From the NCBI GenBank assembly GCA_041478355.1, contig JBGOVX010000002.1:7384-71383 (forward strand): 64,000 nt of DNA. The letters are read 5' to 3'. Source of the DNA: Terriglobia bacterium. GTDB taxonomy: Bacteria > Acidobacteriota > Terriglobia > Acidiferrales > UBA7541. The number at the start of each line of letters is the position of its first letter. Position 1 is the stretch's first letter. Shown here piece by piece: positions 4,601 through 18,001 of the stretch. A program made the translations under genes and the position numbers. The notes beneath the pieces are model-generated. The model was not told where the DNA came from. It did no database searches and was given only the letters and a program-made list of their open reading frames with translations.

Positions 4601-5038
4601 TTATTGCTTGGACGGACTGCGTATGATCTGGACAGAACACGGAGCGTGGCGAGCCACAAATTCCGCAACGCTTCCCAGCAAGAATCGCTGCAGACCCTTG
4701 CGTCCATGCGAACCAATGACGATCATATCCGCATGCCAGTCAGCCGCCGCGTCAATCATCATTGTTCTAATGTCGCCGAGCAGGACGGACGTATCTACTT
4801 TGAATCCGGCGCTACTCAGGGTATTTGCGGCCCGCTCGGCAATGTCCCGCCCCTCCTTGGTTTGCACTTGAAGTTCGGGAGCATAGTCGGCCGCCATTTC
4901 CGGGGGAACAAAATAAGTCAAAGGCGCCACCACGTGTAACACACGCACTTCCGTCGTTTTGGGATTGAATTGCGCGATTACCGCCCGTAGGGTCCCTTCA
5001 GAGGACTTCGGGTCTTCCACTCCAACTAAGATTTTCAT
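4601..5038 (-). CDS. Universal stress protein (UspA family)
   Basis: 145 aa. MKILVGV start and ATP-binding-type motif GSHGRKGLQRFLLGSV. ATG preceded by GGAGGA. Confidence 0.9.
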   Translation of the reverse strand: MKILVGVEDPKSSEGTLRAVIAQFNPKTTEVRVLHVVAPLTYFVPPEMAADYAPELQVQTKEGRDIAERAANTLSSAGFKVDTSVLLGDIRTMMIDAAADWHADMIVIGSHGRKGLQRFLLGSVAEFVARHAPCSVQIIRSPSKQ

Positions 5039-5085
5039 CGTTCCTCCATGTCGCTACCGCAAAAATGTAAACGCATCACGAGTTC

Positions 5086-6009
5086 CTAGAAGTCAGCCCA
5101 CTTCTTGAAGCGCGCCAACTTCATTCCTTCTTTCGGCCAGTTGGGGTGCACATGCTCAATCGCTAAATCCAACAAAAGTCCCTTCGATGAAGTCCAGAGT
5201 AAGAATTCAGGATGAGATGGCGCCTTGAGAGAAAACTTAAAAGCACGCCACTGCTGGTTCGCAGCCTCGATGTTTTCCTCGCCGAGATATTTGAGCTGGC
5301 CGTCCAGGATAGTGGGCCGCACAGGATCGTACGAGCTCGGCTGCTCAATGGATAGAAGTTGCACGTGGGTCCCGTGACTGGGGTCGCGCTCGGAGTGTCG
5401 AGTGAGGCTGCTCAGAGAAAATGGCGAAATAGGCCACAGCAGCCCAAATGGATGCTCCATAGGGATATGTAAAGCGATGGATTGCCGGGGATCGCGCGCT
5501 TCCGAGGAACAATGAAACTCTTTGGCCAGGAATTCGCAGTGGATGGGCCCGGAATCGGATCTCCATCTCAGCTTTGCGAACTCTGTCAACCGGATAACCG
5601 TCAGGTCGCGGGAAAGCTGGACGAGAAACCGGTCCGCATGTGGCACATCCCGCGGAGACTCGAATTTCCGTTCTCCCTCAACTTCATATTCTCTTCTTGC
5701 GGTCCGCCAAAGCGTCCACGATTCGTGAAAATCGTAAACTTCTTCCCCGAAAGGCCCGACCGCGCCGCTATTGCCTTCTTCATAGATTGCATATTCGCCC
5801 TCAGCAATTTTCGTCCGCGGCGTCTCTGGGCCAGGGGATGCGGACGTTGCGGAAGCTGGCTGGCGGGATTGTGGACCAACTTGCGCCGTGTGCGATAATC
5901 CACCGAACAATATTCCGGACAGAACTACGAAAAGTGAGAGGGCATAAAAGCTCTTCGGAGCTCCATAGCCGAAAGGGTTGCGACCCCTCGCATGTTTGAT
6001 GCTGTGCAT
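5086..6009 (-). CDS. Hypothetical membrane-anchored protein in the stress operon
   Basis: 307 aa. ATG follows GGAGG. One N-terminal TM (FYALSLFVVLSGILFGGL), a Ser/Pro-rich linker, then a ~230-aa domain with no motif I recognise. Lies 65 nt after the groEL stop and 47 nt before the USP start. Confidence 0.6.
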   Translation of the reverse strand: MHSIKHARGRNPFGYGAPKSFYALSLFVVLSGILFGGLSHTAQVGPQSRQPASATSASPGPETPRTKIAEGEYAIYEEGNSGAVGPFGEEVYDFHESWTLWRTARREYEVEGERKFESPRDVPHADRFLVQLSRDLTVIRLTEFAKLRWRSDSGPIHCEFLAKEFHCSSEARDPRQSIALHIPMEHPFGLLWPISPFSLSSLTRHSERDPSHGTHVQLLSIEQPSSYDPVRPTILDGQLKYLGEENIEAANQQWRAFKFSLKAPSHPEFLLWTSSKGLLLDLAIEHVHPNWPKEGMKLARFKKWADF

Positions 6010-6074
6010 GCAGACCTCCGGCCGGGAACCACTACCACGAACTTGTAAACTGTCGCCTAATTTGGAAAATCCCG

Positions 6075-7697
6075 CTACTCAAAAGATTCGCGTTGCGCCA
6101 CGCTCTCCTTTTTCTCTTCTGGTTTTTCGGTAAGCGTGGCCTCGGCCAATAGCAGCACGCTGGCAACCGAGACCGCATTTTCAAGCGCAATGCGAACCAC
6201 CTTTGTGGGATCGATAATTCCGGCCTCCACCAGGTCCAGATACTCGCAGCGGGCGGCATCAAAACCGAAGTTCCCCTTGCCTGACCGCATTCGGTCCACG
6301 ACCACTCCTCCATCCACGGTTGAGTTCTCCGCGATCTGGCGGGTAGGGGCCTCGAGCGCGCGCCGCAGAATCAAAAGACCCGTGCGTTCGTCTCCGGAAC
6401 AATTCTTCTCTTCGCCGTTGATCGCGTCAATCAGCCGTAGCAGAGAGAGACCACCTCCCGGCACAATACCTTCTGCCAGGGCGGCTTTCGTCGCGTTGAT
6501 GGCGTCTTCGATTGCTTCCTTGCGGTTTTTCATTTCCGTTTCGGATGGCGCACCGACGCGAATGACGGCCACGCCTCCTGCCAGCTTCGCCAGTCGTTCT
6601 TGAAGTTTCTCTTTGTCGTAGTCGGAAGTTGACTTTTCGATCTGCTTGCGAAGTTCGGCACAGCGGCCTTGAATCGCGGCCTTCGAACCACCGCCTTCGA
6701 TGATTGTGGTTTTGTCCTTGTCGATCAGCACGCGCTTTGCCTTTCCCAACTCGACAAGGGTGAGATTTTCCAGTTTTAGTCCAAGCTCTTCCGCGATCAC
6801 CTGACCGCCCGTGAGAATGGCAACGTCCTGCAACATGTCTTTCCGGCGGTCGCCGAACCCGGGCGCCTTCACAGCGGCGGAGATCAGTGTGCCGCGAACC
6901 TTATTCACGACAAGCGTGGCTAGCGCCTCCCCTTCCACATCCTCGGCAATGATCAACAAAGGCCGCCCGGCCTTGGCCACCTGCTCCAGGAGCGGGAGCA
7001 TGTCCTTCATATTCGTAAGCCTCTTTTCGTGAAGAAGGATCAACGGGTCGTCGAGCGCCACCTCCATTTTTTCCGGATCGGTAATGAAGTACGGCGAGAT
7101 AAATCCCCGGTCGAATTGCATCCCCTCGACAACTTCGAGCGCCGATTCGGTCGTTTTCGCTTCCTCGACCGTAATGACGCCCTCCGCTCCAACCTTCTCG
7201 TACGCATCGGCCACAAGTTCTCCGATAGTTTCATCATTGTGTGCTGAGATGGTGGCAATCTGAGCTTTCTCCAAGCGGCTGGCGACGGGCCGGGAAAGGG
7301 TCTTCAACGCTTCCACTGCGACGCGTAGACCTCGATCCAGGCCGCGCTTGAGGTCGACAGCGCTTGCCCCTGCCGCCACATTGTGCAGGCCTTCGGCAAA
7401 AATCGCGTGCGCCAGGATCGCCGCCGTGCTGGTCCCATCCCCCACCGTGTCGCCCGTGCGTTCCGAGGCCTCCCGGATCATCTGCGCCCCAAGGTTCGCT
7501 TCCGGATCCTCCAGCTCAATCTCCTTGGCAATGGTGATCCCATCGTTACAGACAATCGGTCTTCCCCACTTCTTCTGGATGAGCACACACTTGGACTTTG
7601 GTCCCAGCGTGATGCGCACAGCGTCGGCCAGCGCGGTGGCGCCACTGAGTATTTTCTCCCGCGCGGCAGATCGAAACAGTAAACGTTTTGAGGCCAT
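6075..7697 (-). CDS. groL: Chaperonin GroEL (60 kDa), divergent paralogue without adjacent GroES
   Basis: 540 aa with GroEL-wide similarity ([44 protein letters not shown]). Starts 11 nt after the DLH stop. C-terminus is charged ([17 protein letters not shown]), not Gly/Met-rich. Confidence 0.95.
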
Positions 7698-7708
7698 ACC
7701 CTAACACC

Positions 7709-8428
7709 TTATTTCGCTGGAATGACTTGCCGGGCCTGAGCCAGTCTGGCTTGCGTAAAGTGGCCAGAAAACCACTCGGAGGCAACTTTCGCCACTTCCT
7801 CCAAAGCTCCCGGCTCTTCGAATAAATGCGTTGCTCCGGGAATAATGACCAGCTCCTTTTCGCGGCAGCCAAGCCCAGCCAAGGCTTGCCGGTTTAAGTC
7901 GATCACCGGCTCGTCCTTTCCTCCAACGATCAGGAGAGTGGGCGCCTGCACAGAACTGAGCATCTTTCCGGCCAGGTCTGGTCTGCCGCCGCGGGATACG
8001 ACTGCTGCAATCGTGCCCGAGAATTGGGCTGCGGCCACCAGTGCAGCGGCGGCGCCTGTACTGGCGCCGAAATATCCCACGTTAAGTCCGCGCAGGTCCG
8101 GCTGGCGAAGCGCCCACCAGGCAGCGCCAACCAACCGTTTTGCCAACAAGGGAATGTTGAAGCGCAGTTGCGATGTCCGCTGGTCGACATGTTCTTCATC
8201 GGTCATAAGCAAGTCAAATAACAGGGTCGCAATTCCATGGGACTGAAGGACTTCGGCAACATAACGATTGCGCGGGCTATGGCGGCTGCTGCCACTCCCA
8301 TGAGCAAATAGAACGATGCCTCCCATATTTTCTGGAAGCCCCAAATTCCCTGTCAACGTAACTTTGGATAGCTCGATGGACACATTCTGTTCAGTTACTT
8401 TTTGTTCCGTCATTCGGCCTGGAATCAT
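7709..8428 (-). CDS. Dienelactone hydrolase-like alpha/beta hydrolase
   Basis: 239 aa. FAHGSGSSRHSPRN and nucleophile elbow GASTG. ATG follows AGGAAGGAG. Alternative start at 8413. Confidence 0.8.
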   Translation of the reverse strand: MIPGRMTEQKVTEQNVSIELSKVTLTGNLGLPENMGGIVLFAHGSGSSRHSPRNRYVAEVLQSHGIATLLFDLLMTDEEHVDQRTSQLRFNIPLLAKRLVGAAWWALRQPDLRGLNVGYFGASTGAAAALVAAAQFSGTIAAVVSRGGRPDLAGKMLSSVQAPTLLIVGGKDEPVIDLNRQALAGLGCREKELVIIPGATHLFEEPGALEEVAKVASEWFSGHFTQARLAQARQVIPAK

Positions 8429-8457
8429 GAGCAGACTCCTTCCTTCGCTGCCGCGAT

Positions 8458-9120
8458 CTACTGCGTGACACCCTTTGCGGGCTCTCGCGTATCCCGATGA
8501 AGCAGCTCGGCCACTTCCTCATCCGACACCTGTGAAAAATCCTCATAGAATTCGCCGATCCCGTAAAAGGACACCGGCAGATACACGCAGATGAGTTCAT
8601 CAACCTCGCGTCTGAGGCGCCTGCATGTGGAAGCAGGAGCCACCGGTGTTGCGACCACAAGTCGAGCCGGCTTCATCCGGCGCAATGCGTTGATCGCGAC
8701 CTGCATGCTGGAACCGGTGGCGATGCCATCGTCCACAAGAATGACCGTTTGACCTTCGACCATCAGGGGAGGCCGCCCGTCTCGATAGGCTTGCTCCCGG
8801 CGTTCCAGTTCCTGTCTCTCTTTCGCCGCGATCAACTCAATTTCCCGTTCAGGGATTTTTACCGCTTCCACAATTTCGTCGTCGAGAAAACGAAGCCCGC
8901 CGCTCGCAATTGCCCCGAATGCGAGTTCTTCCCTCCCTGGAACTCCCAGCTTGCGCACAACAAATACATCCAAAGGAGCATGCAATTCCGCCGCCACCTG
9001 GAACGCGACAGGCACCCCTCCGCGCGGAATGCCCAGGACGAGCACGTCCTTTTGTCCCTTGTACGCGTTAAGTAGCTTGGCTAGTTCGCGGCCGGCTTCC
9101 AGACGATCAAAAAAAATCAT
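8458..9120 (-). CDS. Phosphoribosyltransferase-family protein
   Basis: 220 aa. PRPP-binding loop ILVDDGIATGSSM and N-terminal GIPRGGVPVA. First gene of a five-gene same-strand run. Confidence 0.85.
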   Translation of the reverse strand: MIFFDRLEAGRELAKLLNAYKGQKDVLVLGIPRGGVPVAFQVAAELHAPLDVFVVRKLGVPGREELAFGAIASGGLRFLDDEIVEAVKIPEREIELIAAKERQELERREQAYRDGRPPLMVEGQTVILVDDGIATGSSMQVAINALRRMKPARLVVATPVAPASTCRRLRREVDELICVYLPVSFYGIGEFYEDFSQVSDEEVAELLHRDTREPAKGVTQ

Positions 9121-9139: not shown

Positions 9140-9182
9140 ATTTTAAAACGAGAGCGCTAAATAGGCTGTGATGCTCATCACT
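9140..9182 (-). promoter_or_regulatory. Putative class II CRP/FNR-type promoter of the PRT-DLH-groEL-X-usp operon
   Basis: Gene-strand dyad AGTGA-TGAGCA-TCACA (9182..9167) and hexamer TAAAAT (9145..9140). The dyad centre is 29.5 nt from the first T of the hexamer. No -35-like hexamer. Confidence 0.45.
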
Positions 9183-9409
9183 TTCTCGCGTGACGCAGGC
9201 CACGCACCAGAGGTCACAATCGAAGCGGAGATGCGGTAGTGGTTCAGTTTGAAATGACAAATGCCGACAGCGTCTCGAAAAACCAGAAACGCATCGTCCT
9301 CAGCAAAACCATTGTGTATTCGCGGGGGAGGGTCACCGATTTCGTTCAGGGGAATGTTTCGCCAACTCGAAATGGTATCTCCGCGTCTTGGATAATCCTG
9401 CCACCTCGA

Positions 9410-9928
9410 TCAGGCATTCTGAGGGCTGGCGCCAGCCGAGCGACGCGAACGGGTTTTCGGCAACGCAATTTCTAGCATGCAATGGCTGAATCTCGCGGTT
9501 GCCGCTGTCGGCTCGACCTCTACAGGCAGATTAAGAACACGAACGATCTCCCGCCCCTGCAACTTGGAATAATTCCCTTCCACAGCGGGGGTTCCGGCGC
9601 AAGTCCGTTGTTTTCCGAATATGGCCACGCGGCGCGGCTCGATGCCGATCTCGATGGCGCCTTTTTCAAAACAGGATGCGGGAGCGGACACCAATATCCC
9701 TTCACTTCCCTCCATGAATCCCCCACTTAGTGGACCCACGACTTCGGATTCAGCGCACTGCCAGTCTCTCAGTTCCTGTCCAGGAGCGAAGCCACGCCCT
9801 TCGCTGATCTGAAATGCCCGCCGAGCCACCATGACATCAATCTTTTTAGTCAATTCACTGCGGTCGATCGGCATGATTCTAATGGCTCTACCGTTCCATG
9901 ATTGACTCGATGGACTTTGTTCTCGCAT
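9410..9928 (-). CDS. DUF2934-type N-terminus fused to a degenerate alpha-crystallin (Hsp20-like) domain
   Basis: ORF 9410-10036 trimmed to ATG 9928, which follows AAGGGGAG. ARRAFQISEGRGFAPGQELRDWQCAESE resembles DUF2934. The C-terminal half is collinear with the neighbouring Hsp20 (EPRRVAIFGK / EPRRLTITGK; LEIALPK / LNIEMPK). Confidence 0.7.
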   Translation of the reverse strand: MREQSPSSQSWNGRAIRIMPIDRSELTKKIDVMVARRAFQISEGRGFAPGQELRDWQCAESEVVGPLSGGFMEGSEGILVSAPASCFEKGAIEIGIEPRRVAIFGKQRTCAGTPAVEGNYSKLQGREIVRVLNLPVEVEPTAATARFSHCMLEIALPKTRSRRSAGASPQNA

Positions 9929-9983
9929 GACTCCCCTTAATTGCTGAAAACCCTGCGAGGGCGAATCGCAATGACCGTCTGCT

Positions 9984-10235
9984 CTATGCGGCTGCGATGA
10001 GACTGCGACCCCTTTTTGCGGCCAATTCTTCATCACGGGGCTTTAATTGAATGTTTCCGGATTCCTGGCTGAGCACGTAGAGTTCGGAACAACTTCCGCA
10101 GAGCCAAAAATGTTCGACAACAGGTTTGTTCGCAGTAAATCGGCCGTTCAACACAGACCGGCATAATCGAACCAGTTGGCCTTCGCGGTAATCAAACGGT
10201 ATTTTGCAAGCAGGATTAGAGCATTTCGTAAACAT
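9984..10235 (-). CDS. Small zinc-ribbon-like protein (hypothetical)
   Basis: ORF 9984-10382 trimmed to ATG 10235, which follows AGGAAAGGGGA. 83 aa with cysteine pairs CSNPAC and CGSC. Lies 55 nt upstream of the Hsp20-like gene. Confidence 0.5.
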   Translation of the reverse strand: MFTKCSNPACKIPFDYREGQLVRLCRSVLNGRFTANKPVVEHFWLCGSCSELYVLSQESGNIQLKPRDEELAAKRGRSLIAAA

Positions 10236-10275
10236 CGCTCCCGGTCCCCTTTCCTGATGTAAGGCTAGATCACAC

Positions 10276-10340
10276 CTGACGCATCGTAAGCAGCTTTTTG
10301 GTATCGGTTTCTGCGTCGAAAGACTGTGCGCGAAATCACC
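10276..10340 (-). promoter_or_regulatory. Putative class II CRP/FNR-type promoter plus conserved leader start (Zn-ribbon/Hsp20-like unit)
   Basis: Gene-strand dyad GGTGA-TTTCGC-GCACA (10340..10325). TACCAA (10303..10298) at the same 29.5-nt offset. Invariant 17-mer TGCTTACGATGCGTCAG (10292..10276). Confidence 0.45.
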
Positions 10341-10542
10341 ATTAACTTTTTTCCGCAGGTGGCAGAGGTGTCCGGCGTCCACCTCATGATCTTTTTGAGG
10401 CTGTCACGCTGCTGCCTCCGTGTCCACATGAACTTGGACAAGGCTGTGCAAAAGTGGGCCCCTATTCGTTCTGTACCTTAACGGCATGCCTCGCTGTCCC
10501 CTTCTCCGATGCGCAAACTGATTGCATTTGCTTTGTGGAAAC

Positions 10543-10577
10543 GAGGGCAGGCATTGCCGGGTACTATGCCTGCCCTC
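10543..10577 (-). terminator. Hairpin terminator candidate downstream of hsp20
   Basis: Perfect 12-bp inverted repeat GAGGGCAGGCAT / ATGCCTGCCCTC with an 11-nt loop, 12 nt after the stop at 10590. Only a weak T tract (GTTTCC) follows. Confidence 0.5.
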
Positions 10578-10589
10578 CGGCTTTTCCTA

Positions 10590-11117
10590 CTAGGCCGCCT
10601 TGGGTTCGACACGGACAGTCTTGGCATGAGCCGCCTTGGGCATTTCAATGTTCAAAATGCCGTCTTTCAAGGTCGCAGTTACCTTGGAGCCATCAACCTC
10701 CGCCGGCAGGTCAACTGCGCGCAGTATTTGCTCGGCACACCGCTCCGAGTAGATTGTCTTGCCCTTCTTGCTTTCTTCCTTCGCTTCGTGCTTGCCGGTG
10801 ATCGTCAACCGGCGCGGTTCGACGTTGATCTCAAGCTCCTTGGTGCTGAAGCCGGGCACCTCCGCCCGAACGGTTAGATTGTCGTCCGACTCCGTGACTT
10901 CCAAGTGGACCGGATGCAGAAGTTCGGATTCAGCTTGGAGCCAATCCTCCAATTCGTGACCGAACCACCTGCCATTGCTGTCGAATATCTCGAAGGCTCT
11001 TCGAGCAATCGAGTCGTAGACTTGCTGGATTCGATCAAAAACATTCTCGATCTCACTCTGTTTAACAGGTACCGGTGTCTTGACCGGTTGCATTGCTGTT
11101 GCGGCTTGCGCGTTCAT
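10590..11117 (-). CDS. Small heat-shock protein (Hsp20/alpha-crystallin) with DUF2934-type N-terminus
   Basis: ORF trimmed to ATG 11117, which follows AAGGGGGA. IARRAFEIFDSNGRWFGHELEDWLQAESE (DUF2934-like), then an ACD (LTVRAEVPGFSTKELEINVEPRRLTITGK ... KDGILNIEMPK). Confidence 0.85.
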   Translation of the reverse strand: MNAQAATAMQPVKTPVPVKQSEIENVFDRIQQVYDSIARRAFEIFDSNGRWFGHELEDWLQAESELLHPVHLEVTESDDNLTVRAEVPGFSTKELEINVEPRRLTITGKHEAKEESKKGKTIYSERCAEQILRAVDLPAEVDGSKVTATLKDGILNIEMPKAAHAKTVRVEPKAA

Positions 11118-11212
11118 CTGTGTCCCCCTTAAACTCAATATCTGTTGCTGACGATATCGACCGGGGCCGCGGTACAAGCCTCCTGGCTCTCTCACGCACG
11201 CATGCCACAGGA

Positions 11213-11277
11213 CTGACGCATCGTAAGCACTTTGTTTCTACACGAATCTGCATCGCAATACTGTGAGCGAGGTCACC
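11213..11277 (-). promoter_or_regulatory. Putative class II CRP/FNR-type promoter plus conserved leader start (hsp20 unit)
   Basis: Gene-strand dyad GGTGA-CCTCGC-TCACA (11277..11262). TAGAAA (11240..11235) at the same offset. Identical 17-mer TGCTTACGATGCGTCAG (11229..11213). Confidence 0.45.
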
Positions 11278-11756
11278 GATGATAGTAATCCGGGTCACAT
11301 GTGTAATATGTTTGATACTTCGACAGACAGCCCGTCCACGAATAGCCACTACCCTTGTTCACCCTTGGCATAAACACCTTGCTAATCGAGGGAGCGCGGC
11401 GTGATGTCAGAATCGGTGTGGGAATGGAAATCGATAACCCCAGTCAAATTGGCTTGCTCGTGCGCTGTGAACGCCATCAGACCGAGCCAGACTCCTATTC
11501 AGGCGCTTCGGCCGATGAAACGATACGGCAATTTTGCGCGCCTCGTTTTCTCTCCCTATTTTGAGCACCCATGAAGCAAGCAGCCCCATTGACCGCTTTG
11601 GGGTAGGGCCCTCCTAAACAATTCAGACGCATCCACTCGGGTGAAGGGGGAGTTTGCATCAGAGCAGATTACTCGCCCATGAGGCTTTTTCAGGGCAATG
11701 CGCTTGATTTTGGTTTCTATTACCACTTCCCTGCCGGAATGATAAAATCGGGGGCT

Positions 11757-14495: not shown

Positions 14496-16148
14496 TCACG
14501 CCTCGATTCGCGGATCGGGAATCGCACGTCCGACCGCGAAGTGATAAATCACCTGCTGCGGAAGCATTCTGGAATCTAAATTGTCTCCTTCTTCGAGGAA
14601 ACCCAGATATCGGTGCACATCATCGTCATAAAAAGCGCCTATGCCCGTGGCATTCCAATGCAGCGCTTCCGCGCCCAAATACAGCCTCTGCCCAATAGCC
14701 CCAGCCTCGAAATGCACGTACCGGTAGCCTCGATTGCCGAATACTTGCGCAGCCGCAGCCAAGTCTGCAATCATCGAAACGGCGAAGCAAGCATTCCCCG
14801 CCAGGGACTGGTCCAGACTAAGATAAGCCGCCACGCGCTGCACATTGCCGGGATGTAACAGTTTCAGACTCCGGCTGTGCAGATCCCACTGGTAAACGCC
14901 GGGTTCGCAGTCGTGTACGCGGTGAACATAGAGATACAGGGTCACGAAATTGATGTCCTTCGCAAGGCTTGTCGCCTGGTCGTGGAAATGACCGCGCCAG
15001 TCCGCGGGCCAATCTCTGGTTGCGAAATCCAGAATCTGCTCCGCCTCATGGCGCTGCATAGGCGAAGTGTGGGGATCGAAATCAAGCGCAGAGCGCCGTC
15101 GCCGCACGATTGTTTCCAGAGGAGTATCACGGTCTGGTTTTTGCAAATGCCCGGTTATGGAGGGCTGTTCGCTCCCAACTAACGGCGCCCCCGCGGAATC
15201 AGGCAGGATCGTTGCGCGGTGAATATCGAGAAGCAATTCGTAAACAACTTCCTCAGCCGATAATTCGTTGGGAATTCCCGTAAACACTTCCCCGGGCGAG
15301 GCAGGTGATTGCGTGGACGCACGTTTCGATGGAAACACCAAGAAGGCCATGGGTGCCTGATCGCCTCCAATCAAGCCGAGAGCGCGCGTCAGATGGGAAT
15401 CAGCGAAATAAGTTATAGCGCTACCCGGCAATCCCAATGCCTGCGCCGCCAGAAGTATGCTCATCATTGCGTGTCCCAAATCATGGCAGCAGTATCGATA
15501 GGCGCGATCGCGGTACTTCCAGGCTTCACGCCAAAAAATTGACGTCAGCCCGACAATTAAAGACGGTTCCGCAGACAATGGAATTTTGAGGGCGCGAGCC
15601 AGGTGTTGCGTCCAGGCGCCTGGGCTGCGAAGCTCGATGGCGTGGCGATCCGCGCGGTAATGATACAGTCCGTCGCCGAGGCCCTGGAAATCCAGCAGCG
15701 CGACGTAGGTTTCGGTAGGGTGAAGATTTCCCGACGAAGGATTCACGCGCAGGCTATAGCGATTCCCGGTCTGCGACACTTTCTTCCAGGCGCTGATCGC
15801 CATGGAGTGCCAGAGCAAACGACTGAGCCATATCCGGTCCAAAGGAATTGATTCCCCGTTTTCGACCGCGTACCCACCGGCTAGACTCGCAGGCTCCGCG
15901 AGAGCCGAGATCACGGCGAATGTTCCAGTCTTCGGGAAGCCAGGTTCAGGCGGAAGCTCAATGTTGGGGGCGCCTTCATAGGTACGGAATGGGTCGGGCT
16001 GATTCTTCCAATCCAGAAAATGCGCGTTCGCGCGAACAGAATGAAAAGTGTGCTTAGTGGCTTGATGATAGGTGAAAAGACGTTCGGTTTCTAGGTTGTA
16101 GGCGCCACATCGGGGATCCTCCAAATCGCGGGAGAGGAAGCGCGTCAT
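14496..16148 (-). CDS. SagB/ThcOx-type nitroreductase-fold dehydrogenase (two-domain)
   Basis: 550 aa. N-terminal YHQATKHTF signature typical of SagB-type dehydrogenase domains and two nitroreductase-like halves. No YcaO or cyclodehydratase nearby. Confidence 0.75.
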   Translation of the reverse strand: MTRFLSRDLEDPRCGAYNLETERLFTYHQATKHTFHSVRANAHFLDWKNQPDPFRTYEGAPNIELPPEPGFPKTGTFAVISALAEPASLAGGYAVENGESIPLDRIWLSRLLWHSMAISAWKKVSQTGNRYSLRVNPSSGNLHPTETYVALLDFQGLGDGLYHYRADRHAIELRSPGAWTQHLARALKIPLSAEPSLIVGLTSIFWREAWKYRDRAYRYCCHDLGHAMMSILLAAQALGLPGSAITYFADSHLTRALGLIGGDQAPMAFLVFPSKRASTQSPASPGEVFTGIPNELSAEEVVYELLLDIHRATILPDSAGAPLVGSEQPSITGHLQKPDRDTPLETIVRRRRSALDFDPHTSPMQRHEAEQILDFATRDWPADWRGHFHDQATSLAKDINFVTLYLYVHRVHDCEPGVYQWDLHSRSLKLLHPGNVQRVAAYLSLDQSLAGNACFAVSMIADLAAAAQVFGNRGYRYVHFEAGAIGQRLYLGAEALHWNATGIGAFYDDDVHRYLGFLEEGDNLDSRMLPQQVIYHFAVGRAIPDPRIEA

Positions 16149-16258: not shown

Positions 16259-18001
16259 TCACAAAATCCCTTCCAGAAAGGTGCGGAGGTTCCTCGACCG
16301 GGACGGATGGCGCAGCTTGCGCAAGGCTTTGGCTTCGATTTGACGGATACGTTCTCGTGTAACGGCAAAGGAGTGTCCAACTTCCTCGAGGGTATGTTCG
16401 GAACCATCCTCCAGGCCGAAGCGCATCTTAATCACTTTTTCCTCGCGGGGTGTCAGCGTCTTCAACAATGATTCAGTCTGTTCCTGCAAGCTGATGTTGA
16501 TGGCGGCGTCAGAAGGCGACACCGAGGACTTGTCCTCGATAAATTCCCCCAAGTGTGAATCTTCTTCTTCGCCGATGGGTGTCTCGAGCGAAATGGGCTG
16601 CTGCGCAATCTGCTTGGTCTTGCGCACCTTGTCGATCGGAACGTCCAGGCGTGAGGCTATCTCCTCGGTGCTTGGCTCGCGGCCGAGCTCCTGCACGAGC
16701 TGGCGGCTGGTTCGAACCTGCTTATTGATGGTCTCGATCATGTGCACGGGGACACGGATCGTGCGGGCCTGATCAGCGATGGCGCGGGTTACAGCCTGAC
16801 GAATCCACCACGTCGCATAGGTTGAAAACTTGTAGCCGCGGCGCCATTCGAATTTATCCGCGCCTTTCATCAAGCCGATATTGCCTTCTTGAATCAGGTC
16901 CAGAAATTGCAGCCCGCGATTTGTATACTTCTTGGCGATGGAAACGACCAGGCGCAAGTTCGCCTCGACCATTTCTTTCTTGGCATGGTCGGCATCAGAC
17001 TCTCCGCGGAGAATTATCTGGAGCATGCGCTTCAGGTCGGTCAGCCCGGTTTCACTGGAGACTTCAATTTCATGAAGCTCCGCGCGCCGCGCACGCAATT
17101 CCTTGCGGGCCTCGGCAGCATTGTCCCCTTTGGAAGCCTCGACTCGCCGTTCGAGCTTCCCTATTTCGCGCTCCAGGGACTGCAATCGCTCCACGATATG
17201 GCGAATCTTGTCGATCAGCCGTTTTCTTTCGAGCGGGTGGAAATCGATCGATCGAACAAGGTGCGACATTTGTACTCGCGTCCTGGCCAGCCGGTTCTTG
17301 TGCCGCAAGTGGACGCGTCTTGATGCCTTAGGCGTTTTCTCTAATTGCGCCGCTTGCTTGAGCCCCAAGGCATAAAGGTGCTCGATTTTCCCAATGGTCC
17401 GCAGGATCTCGCGCGTCTTGCTTTCGGTTTCCTCTTCGGTCAGCTCTTCCTGGTCAAATTGAACGATTTTCTTGATCGATAGAGTGCCGTTTCGAAGGTC
17501 CTCGGCAACCGAAATCAATTCCTTAAGAACGATTGGCGACCGGGAGATCGTCTTGAGCACCATCAGATGGCCGCGCTCCATGCGCTTGGCAATAGCCACT
17601 TCATCCTGGCGCTTCAGCAGCGGAACCGAACCCATCTCGCGCAGATAGATTCGAACTGGATCGTTGTTCTTGTCGAGCAACCCTGGGGTAAGGTCGAGTT
17701 CACTCTCTTCCACCACCGGAACTCTGTCGGCCCATTCCACCAACGGGGCTTCCGGGGCATTGGGGTCAGGGGCAGCATGAGCAGCCCTTGCGGCAGCCAA
17801 GTCTTCGTAGATGGTGATTCCCAAGCGTTCGAAAGTGGACAGCAGATCGTCAATCTCCTCCGACGAGTGCGCGTCATCAGGCAATACCTGTTCTATCTCC
17901 TCCGAGAGCAGGTATCCGCGCTCCTTGCCCAGAGTGATTAGATTGCGGACTTGGTCGCGCATTTCTTGGGTTGTCAGTGACAAGAAACTCTCCCCATGCA
18001 A
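16259..18001 (-). CDS. rpoD: Primary RNA polymerase sigma factor RpoD
   Basis: 580 aa. Region 2 [37 protein letters not shown] and region 4 [30 protein letters not shown]. The ORF start is TTG; an alternative TTG at 17983 follows GGGGAGAG. Confidence 0.95.

Follow-up and report, generated by a model that had tools for sequence, protein, structure and literature searches.

The DosR regulon of Mycobacterium tuberculosis comprises an hspX-type Hsp20, tandem universal stress proteins (USPs), a CtpF-type P-type ATPase, an Rv0571c-type PRT/hydrolase, a nitroreductase and a ribosome hibernation factor. In Burkholderia cenocepacia, the lxa island carries alpha-crystallin, many USPs, a nitroreductase, a cation ATPase and BON ('phospholipid-binding') proteins, with an Anr/Fnr-like TGA-N6-TCA motif at 17 intergenic points (PMC3721108), and the DosR regulon has been discussed alongside this content (PMC3721108). 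Here we describe a stress island in a 64,000-nucleotide stretch of Terriglobia DNA (referred to as the window, and corresponding to positions 67,157-131,156 of the 136,769-bp JGI contig Ga0534150_0000069 from metagenome 3300053057), in which three transcription units on the minus strand, headed by hsp20, by a small Zn-ribbon-like gene and by a PRT gene, are each preceded by a dyad of the GTGA-N6-TCAC type. We consider it reasonably likely that these dyads are operators of one uncharacterised 238-aa Crp/Fnr-family transcription factor (referred to as TF), which would bind them in tandem and activate the stress units at low oxygen. In uncultured soil Acidobacteria, falling oxygen would probably cause such a regulator to switch on a dormancy-like set of stress genes.

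In the class II geometry of CRP/FNR activators, a dyad near -41.5 substitutes for the -35 element. To our knowledge, tandem Crp-family sites have not been described as the invariant operator of a whole regulon. The whiB1 promoter of M. tuberculosis does carry tandem CRP sites, centred at -58.5 and -37.5 and thus 21 bp apart, of which one activates and one represses (PMC2844151). This is a single promoter, however, whereas the 22-bp tandem of the Terriglobia appears to be used regulon-wide and in both directions.

Within the window, the proximal dyad of hsp20 (GGTGACCTCGCTCACA, 11277..11262, minus strand as for all sites that follow) is trailed by the -10-like hexamer TAGAAA (11240..11235), that of the PRT unit (AGTGATGAGCATCACA, 9182..9167) by TAAAAT (9145..9140), and the Zn-ribbon dyad (GGTGATTTCGCGCACA, one mismatch, 10340..10325) by TACCAA (10303..10298). 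The gap between the 16-mer and the hexamer measures 21 nt at all three sites, and the dyad centre lies 29.5 nt from the first T. An earlier sequence-only reading of the window had proposed exactly these dyads and TA-initiated hexamers, their constant distance and the absence of a -35-like hexamer; every coordinate was confirmed, and a simple sigma-70 promoter/terminator scan gave no canonical -35/-10 pair at the three sites. Two parts of that reading had to be revised, namely that the operator is a single dyad and that the three sites are equivalent. The dyads themselves are real, but at hsp20 and PRT the operator is a tandem pair, with a distal dyad 22 bp upstream of the proximal one (for hsp20, GTGACCCGGATTAC, one mismatch, 11298..11285, with a predicted centre at -63.5 against -41.5 for the proximal dyad; for PRT, GTGGCCTGCGTCAC, one mismatch, 9203..9190). 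The lone Zn-ribbon dyad has no 22-bp partner and belongs to a truncated duplicate of the hsp20 promoter. Specifically, an ungapped alignment of ~65 nt (10276..10340) runs from the dyad through TACCAA to an identical 16-mer, GCTTACGATGCGTCAG, in the start of the leader, and because of this alignment the Zn-ribbon promoter is a partial copy of that of hsp20.

The pattern RGTGA-N6-KCACA, which is that of the earlier reading and was defined post hoc, has three matches in the 64 kb where 0.38 are expected; three or more occurred in 0 of 100 shuffles, and all three matches are the sites described above. The 36-bp composite GTGA-N6-TCAC-N8-GTGA-N6-TCAC, with at most two mismatches, occurs twice in the window against an expectation of 0.01. 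Single GTGA-N6-TCAC dyads with one mismatch allowed are not enriched there (28 vs 20.6 expected), and for that reason the window sequence alone is suggestive, not conclusive.

We take the comparative evidence to be decisive. A search of species-representative genomes with the Hsp20 protein yielded 31 loci (70-89% protein identity), nearly all from uncultured Terriglobia/'Acidiferrales' (Acidobacteriota), which together with the window make up 593 kb. A metagenome set of 80 loci (382 kb), anchored on TF rather than on hsp20, extended the independent sequence to 975 kb and the related loci to 111 overall, all of them metagenome-assembled genomes (MAGs) or metagenome contigs of one class with crude gene calls based on the longest open reading frame (ORF). 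About half of the 31 hsp20-anchored loci (referred to as class A) retain the proximal dyad, the distal dyad and the hexamer (TAnAAA/nAnAAT, 21 nt past the 16-mer) upstream of hsp20, while the DNA between these elements diverges; the distal dyad keeps the form GTGAC-N5-TTAC/TTTC in L002, L006, L009, L018 and others. The PRT promoter is likewise conserved as GTGGCC-N4-TCAC-N8-GTGATGA-N3-TCAC, with orthologous sites in L002, L004, L006, L009 and L018, and CAAAAT, CAGAAT or GAGAAT stands in the orthologues at the offset of TAAAAT. The dyads are therefore conserved upstream of both hsp20 and PRT orthologues, which is one of the checks that the earlier reading had put forward.

The same sequences revealed a strict spacing between the two dyads. 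In the 593 kb, pairs of dyads with at most one mismatch each occurred 54 times at a distance of 22 bp and at most five times at any other spacing, and the composite with its 8-nt spacer was found 86 times at up to three mismatches, compared to 1-12 times for the other spacers between 2 and 15 nt. Across the 975 kb, 157 of the 200 exact dyads have a partner (at most two mismatches) at +/-22 bp, with no more than three at any other offset; because of this, the tandem pair is the rule, and lone dyads such as that of the Zn-ribbon gene are the exceptions. Over the 111 related Terriglobia loci, the 8-nt spacer exceeds each other spacer 7- to 80-fold. Moreover, 75 of the 86 composites (~87%) are intergenic, at a crude coding density of 0.76 (binomial P ~1e-35). 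The consensus derived from 74 non-identical composites is cTGTGAy-N4-rTCACAg, or, when symmetrised over the entire element, cTGTGAy-N4-rTCAC-wt....aw-GTGAy-N4-rTCACAg; the base following GTGA is an A in 1% of the sites and the base preceding TCAC is a T in 0%.

The position of the composite relative to the putative -10 element is similarly constrained. Hexamers of the form nAnAAT or TAnnnT are found 20-22 nt past the outer half-site, with a peak at 21 nt (24 cases, next to 10 at 20 nt and 8 at 22 nt). This 21-nt peak is present in the Hsp20, PRT, USPx2, HAD-ATPase, P-ATPase, HPF, GNAT-CN-hydrolase, OsmC, ACT and STAS-TF promoter families, and since at least ten unrelated families display it, orthology does not account for it. 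With the hexamer taken as the -10 element, the proximal dyad would be centred at about -41.5 and the distal one at about -63.5, and under that same proviso the intergenic dyads, held in a fixed hexamer register across at least ten families, fit the class II geometry that the sequence-only reading had proposed. Around 40% of the sites lie between divergent genes, and the others are unidirectional yet tandem. For the divergent pairs HAD-ATPase/HPF, PRT/OsmC and P-ATPase/GNAT-CN-hydrolase, a hexamer is located at 20-22 nt on both flanks of a perfect composite, so that one composite appears to serve two divergent promoters. On the HAD-ATPase side of some composites (L008 5944, L016 5988, L020 5920, L021 5936, L022 5555), the hexamer at 22 nt is a weaker one, and a perfect or near-perfect TATAAT/TACAAT was observed as well, only 4 nt past the dyad; the latter may be a second promoter, which the bound factor would occlude.

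A candidate for this factor emerged from the class A loci, in which a probe with E. coli CRP uncovered a conserved 238-aa ORF. Its orthologues (79-86% identity by tblastn) are located 2.6-3.7 kb upstream of hsp20, in divergent orientation, in 13 class A loci, and the protein consists of a Pfam cNMP_binding domain (PF00027) followed by HTH_Crp_2 (PF13545). The expectation of the earlier reading that a Crp/Fnr-family sensor governs the island accords with this gene lying near hsp20 in 13 orthologous islands, as does its expectation that the sensor is not encoded in the window, where neither phmmer nor tblastn found a TF gene. The gene was not found either in the fetched flanks of the source contig (~10 kb on the left plus the right flank), and the TF-anchored metagenome scan returned no contig from the window's own sample. 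At E <= 1e-30, 3,870 homologue clusters match the protein, all generically named. It reaches the cut-off of no NCBIfam equivalog model, the best being FtrB, FixK, CRP, FnrL and Fnr, all far under threshold (48.7 bits against a cut-off of 228 for Fnr NF008365, and 63.7 bits against 266 for the CRP equivalog NF008732), and among solved structures, those of mycobacterial and corynebacterial CRPs are nearest to it in sequence.

Residue comparisons were made with E. coli CRP and FNR sequences; the alignments were consistent with the family and the residue numbering with the literature. The recognition helix of TF reads TRETVTR, against SRETVGR in CRP and TVETISR in FNR. In the residue-to-base code of this family, an R-E-x-x-x-R helix reads a GTGA half-site. 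The residues corresponding to R82 and S83, which contact cAMP in CRP, are Y and E in TF. At the same time, TF carries an N-terminal C-x2-C-x8-C motif and a central cysteine within HPCQ(V/I)AF; in the pairwise alignment C13, C16 and C118 pair with C20, C23 and C122 of FNR, while C25 falls 3 residues past the position of C29. A HMMER alignment to the Aliivibrio FNR structure begins at C13 of TF. The cysteine motif is present in 118 of 120 metagenome homologues and the helix in 119 of 120. These data suggest that the sensor is more likely of the FNR-type Fe-S kind, responding to O2 or NO, than a cAMP receptor, and the cysteine motif taken together with the regulon content makes low O2 or NO the most likely signal. 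From the list of cAMP, O2, NO or redox signals that the sequence-only reading had left side by side, the cysteines favour O2 or NO, while cAMP loses ground with the replacement of its contacts.

Compared to described members of the family, TF resembles E. coli FNR in its N-terminal Cys-x2-Cys with a further cysteine, in its central cysteine (C122 in FNR) and in a similar C-terminal extension, and FNR class II sites lie at about -41.5, where the proximal Terriglobia dyad is predicted to be. However, TF differs in its box (GTGA-N6-TCAC rather than TTGAT-N4-ATCAA), in its helix (RETVTR rather than ETISR), in the spacing of the third cysteine (x8 rather than x5) and in an operator that is an obligatory tandem pair. 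E. coli CRP and the mycobacterial and corynebacterial CRP/GlxR proteins share the TGTGA-N6-TCACA box and the R-E-x-x-x-R helix with TF and are its best PDB matches, but R82/S83 are absent from TF, the CRP equivalog cut-off is missed and a cysteine motif is present. The Fnr of Bacillus subtilis and Paenibacillus is an Fe-S FNR that recognises TGTGA-N6-TCACA, its cluster ligands being three C-terminal cysteines and an aspartate (10.1101/2020.01.03.894683). TF, by contrast, has its cysteine motif at the N-terminus and is without C-terminal cysteines (it ends in ...IPNRAALETFANA). We know of no tandem sites as a feature of Bacillus/Paenibacillus Fnr. Membership of FNR proper, CRP, Bacillus-type Fnr and Rex was rejected in view of the box, the helix, the model scores, R82/S83, the C-terminal cysteines and the base preferences.

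The TF-anchored loci link the operator to this gene. Composites with an 8-nt spacer and at most two mismatches occur 80 times in this set, against 0-4 times for the other spacers, with the exception of 9 nt (12 times), whose matches mostly represent a single orthologous promoter of the TF clade that is most distant. The composites cluster at two places, ~470 nt ahead of the TF start, a position that precedes a STAS gene, and ~1.25 kb downstream of the TF start. A recognisable site precedes the STAS-TF operon in 16 of 49 loci, compared to 1 of 49 for a control spacer, and on that count autoregulation is likely in part of the TF family, though not in all of it. The promoter with the 9-nt spacer reads GTGCG-N5-TCAC-N9-GTGAYCTGCATTAC, is located ~370 nt upstream of TF and was found in L101, L102, L103, L105, L108, L111, L113, L114 and L119. 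As for the operon itself, a small STAS-domain protein, whose L001 copy scores 29.6 bits, is encoded ahead of TF, and TF is followed in four loci by a receiver-only response regulator (STAS or response-regulator neighbours at L008 7390-7728, L001 9200-9541 and L009 5819-6223), which hints towards a second input by partner-switching or phosphorylation. In L019 (10702-11424), a TF paralogue with 43% identity stands right after an hsp20 gene of the leader type described below; it keeps the RETVTR helix and lacks the N-terminal cysteines as well as the central one.

The genes linked to composites encode Hsp20, PRT, hydrolase and GroEL, tandem USPs, a HAD-phosphatase/ATPase fusion and a ribosome hibernation factor (HPF), together with a P-type cation ATPase, a GNAT-nitrilase fusion, ACT and OsmC proteins, a MacB-type efflux system, an acyl-CoA synthetase, an L,D-transpeptidase with a MepK endopeptidase, and a BON protein. 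By analogy, this content resembles that of low-oxygen regulons and is dormancy-like. The DosR regulon overlaps it in gene content, but DosR is a two-component response regulator with a different box and not a Crp/Fnr protein. The lxa island seems to be the nearest functional analogue, yet it belongs to another phylum, its motif was described as a single inverted repeat and its regulator was not identified there, while GroEL, PRT/DLH, HPF and L,D-transpeptidase genes are additional in the Terriglobia. A small heat-shock protein that depends on FnrN has been reported from Rhizobium (PMC11784457). Judged by its content, this kind of regulon has known analogues in lxa and DosR. The claim of the sequence-only reading that the regulon itself was previously uncharted held up, in that the literature searched held no specific account of a Crp/Fnr stress regulon in Acidobacteria and homologues are generically named. 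A 550-aa protein with two nitroreductase/SagB-type domains is encoded in the window (14496-16148, minus strand) directly downstream of rpoD (16259-18001); despite its DosR-like flavour, this gene has no upstream dyad and apparently falls outside the regulon.

Beyond the window, the source contig holds further sites. Two more composites are located in the ~10 kb to its left, and one of these is perfect (L039 6498-6533), positioned between a divergent baeRF gene and an operon of formate-dehydrogenase-like (Fer2/Fer4/molybdopterin) and NADH-dehydrogenase-51K genes (L039 2115-6238), all ~2.5-7 kb left of the window; on its operon side a TAGCTT hexamer is found at 21 nt. A P-type ATPase of the regulon family lies further left on the same flank, and another composite is present 340 nt past the right end of the window.

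Building on the composite architecture and its associations, both of which can be read from the sequence, we infer binding, the direction of regulation, cooperativity and the signal as follows. Two TF dimers would occupy adjacent positions at about -41.5 and -63.5; the one nearer the promoter would recruit sigma-70 RNA polymerase in the class II manner, and the distal dimer would either stabilise binding or drive a divergent promoter. At divergent pairs, a single element would serve two promoters, the -41.5 site of each being supplied by the outer dyad on its own side. TF most likely holds a [4Fe-4S] cluster that is labile to O2 or NO, given its four FNR-like cysteines and the lack of the cAMP-contact residues of CRP, and it would be active under oxygen scarcity. 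In most related Terriglobia islands the TF gene adjoins hsp20; for the window, it would have to lie in another part of the genome. From there, TF would switch on hsp20, the Zn-ribbon gene with its Hsp20-like neighbour (from the single-dyad copy) and the PRT-hydrolase-GroEL-unknown-USP unit, these three units being part of a larger dormancy-like regulon. A more elaborate version is possible but doubtful, in which an obligate dimer of dimers on a rigid 36-bp operator with four half-sites would form a symmetrical, bidirectional class II module, with a cooperative distal dimer, an N-terminal Fe-S sensor combined with CRP-type specificity, and a co-transcribed STAS protein possibly adding a partner-switching input. 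If true, this would be a promoter architecture that is not known from the Crp/Fnr family.

Several points weigh against activation by TF at low oxygen. The site counts are inflated by orthology among related MAGs, and the positions of -41.5 and -63.5 depend on taking the hexamer as the -10 element. The third N-terminal cysteine of TF is shifted by 3 residues relative to FNR, and the protein scores far under the NCBIfam cut-offs for Fnr and CRP. The presence of TF in the window's own genome is assumed, its gene having been found neither in the window nor in the ~10 kb flank. The two dimers may or may not interact, and some promoters of the L008 type, with a perfect TATAAT 4 nt past the dyad, would lead one to expect occlusion rather than activation.

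The latter promoters would fit with a repressor, such as a Rex-type NADH/NAD+ sensor or a negatively acting Crp/Fnr protein that sits over the -35 region and blocks RNA polymerase until a signal releases it. The Rex box, TTGTGAA-N4-TTCACAA, has GTGA-N6-TCAC at its core and shares it with the dyads described here. One of the two tandem CRP sites of whiB1 represses as well (PMC2844151). Nevertheless, the scarcity of A after GTGA (1%) and of T before TCAC (0%) is the opposite of the Rex consensus GTGAA-N4-TTCAC, and no Rex gene was seen adjoining the sites. Moreover, the strict distance of 21 +/- 1 nt to a -10 in at least ten unrelated promoters, none with a -35, points to an activator standing in for the -35 element rather than to a repressor, and we regard repression as unlikely. 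Even less probable is a role of the tandem dyads as upstream activator sequences of a PAS-PAS sigma-54 enhancer-binding protein, although such a gene (fam 3, L008 7870-9666 and orthologues) shares the hsp20 intergenic region and its composite, in divergent orientation, in 12 class A loci. NifA-type boxes have the form TGT-N10-ACA, with which TGTGA-N6-TCACA formally complies, and tandem sites are common for enhancer-binding proteins. The sites lie just 40-150 nt from start codons, however, with a sigma-70-type -10 at 21 nt, and no GG-N10-GC element was seen by eye in the aligned promoters. In addition, L001 and the window have the sites with no enhancer-binding protein gene nearby (none is present next to hsp20), and the TF-anchored set ties the sites to the Crp/Fnr gene; we give this explanation very little weight.

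A true receptor for cAMP or another cyclic nucleotide would have the island answer carbon or energy starvation instead of oxygen. Both the TGTGA-N6-TCACA box and the RE...R helix are CRP-like, mycobacterial and corynebacterial CRPs are the nearest solved structures by sequence, and JGI labels many of the homologues 'cyclic AMP receptor protein'. The Fe-S Fnr of Bacillus and Paenibacillus uses this box as well, though (10.1101/2020.01.03.894683), and the Y/E in place of the phosphate contacts R82/S83, the four FNR-like cysteines in 118 of 120 homologues and the 63.7 bits against a CRP cut-off of 266 all speak against cAMP, so that we hold a cyclic-nucleotide receptor to be improbable, if less so than sigma-54 enhancers. 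The explanation to which we attach the least probability is that the three dyads are chance palindromes or leftovers of local duplication without a regulatory role. In its favour, the window shows no enrichment of single dyads at one mismatch and the Zn-ribbon site was demonstrably copied from the hsp20 promoter; against it stand the excess over expectation (3 vs 0.38 for the pattern of the earlier reading and 2 vs 0.01 for the composite), the dyads kept across genomes in which Hsp20 is 70-89% identical while the flanking DNA diverges, and the statistics of spacing and register. The comparative data refute a chance origin of the hsp20 and PRT sites.

In peat and acid soils, where oxygen fluctuates, few bacteria are as abundant as the Terriglobia, and their transcriptional control is almost uncharted. 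The activation by TF that we favour would supply a triplet of regulator, operator and regulon, with a candidate gene, a 36-bp operator in around ten promoter families and O2 or NO as the candidate signal. Any Acidobacteriota genome can be screened for operator and regulon, and oxic/anoxic metatranscriptomes that already exist allow a check. The hypoxic-persistence gene set of Mycobacterium (DosR) and Burkholderia (lxa) hereby recurs in a third phylum with what would be a third wiring, and the strict 22-bp tandem rule offers a clean system in which to study the cooperation of two Crp/Fnr dimers.

The gene content that the sequence-only reading had assigned to the island agrees with our domain and ORF analysis. 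On the minus strand, unit 1 consists of hsp20 (DUF2934 + HSP20, 10590..11117), and unit 2 of the gene for the Zn-ribbon-like small protein (fam 9, 9984..10235) followed by an Hsp20-like/DUF2934 paralogue (9410..9928); a fam 9 gene comes after hsp20 in 7 further loci. The PRT unit (4601..9120) comprises five genes with gaps of 11-65 nt, encoding PRT (8458-9120), an alpha/beta-hydrolase/DLH-like protein (7709-8428), GroEL (6075-7697), a 307-aa protein of unknown function (5086-6009) and a USP (4601-5038). A perfect 10-bp hairpin, GGGCAGGCAT / ATGCCTGCCC, follows the hsp20 stop codon (10575..10545, minus strand) and is a probable terminator dividing units 1 and 2; the simple terminator scan did not flag it, because its loop is 11 nt and its T-run short.

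The duplicated leader box GCTTACGATGCGTCAG occupies about +1 to +16 of the predicted hsp20 transcript (11213..11228, minus strand) and, identically, positions 10276..10291 in the Zn-ribbon copy. A looser form, CTTACGR-N4/5-KCAG, was also seen in L004, L006 and L009; the box is confined to hsp20-type promoters, at a constant 49 nt past the start of the proximal dyad. An RNA thermometer is unsupported for the predicted hsp20, Zn-ribbon and PRT leaders, which fold at z-scores of -0.4 to +0.9, and an Rfam scan of the entire window revealed one tRNA and nothing else. A different leader was observed in the approximately one third of hsp20 loci that are free of dyads (L005 (9833-9990), L007, L010, L011, L013, L014, L015, L017, L019, L023, L030). 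It spans ~150 nt from a TATACT/TATGCT -10 element, is near-invariant, and had no Rfam match when the L005 copy was scanned. Its RNAalifold prediction combines the hairpin CCGCCGYGCCC/GGGCGACGG and a long-range helix, and a single covarying pair was seen; this leader may be considered a candidate for a new cis-regulatory RNA of hsp20.

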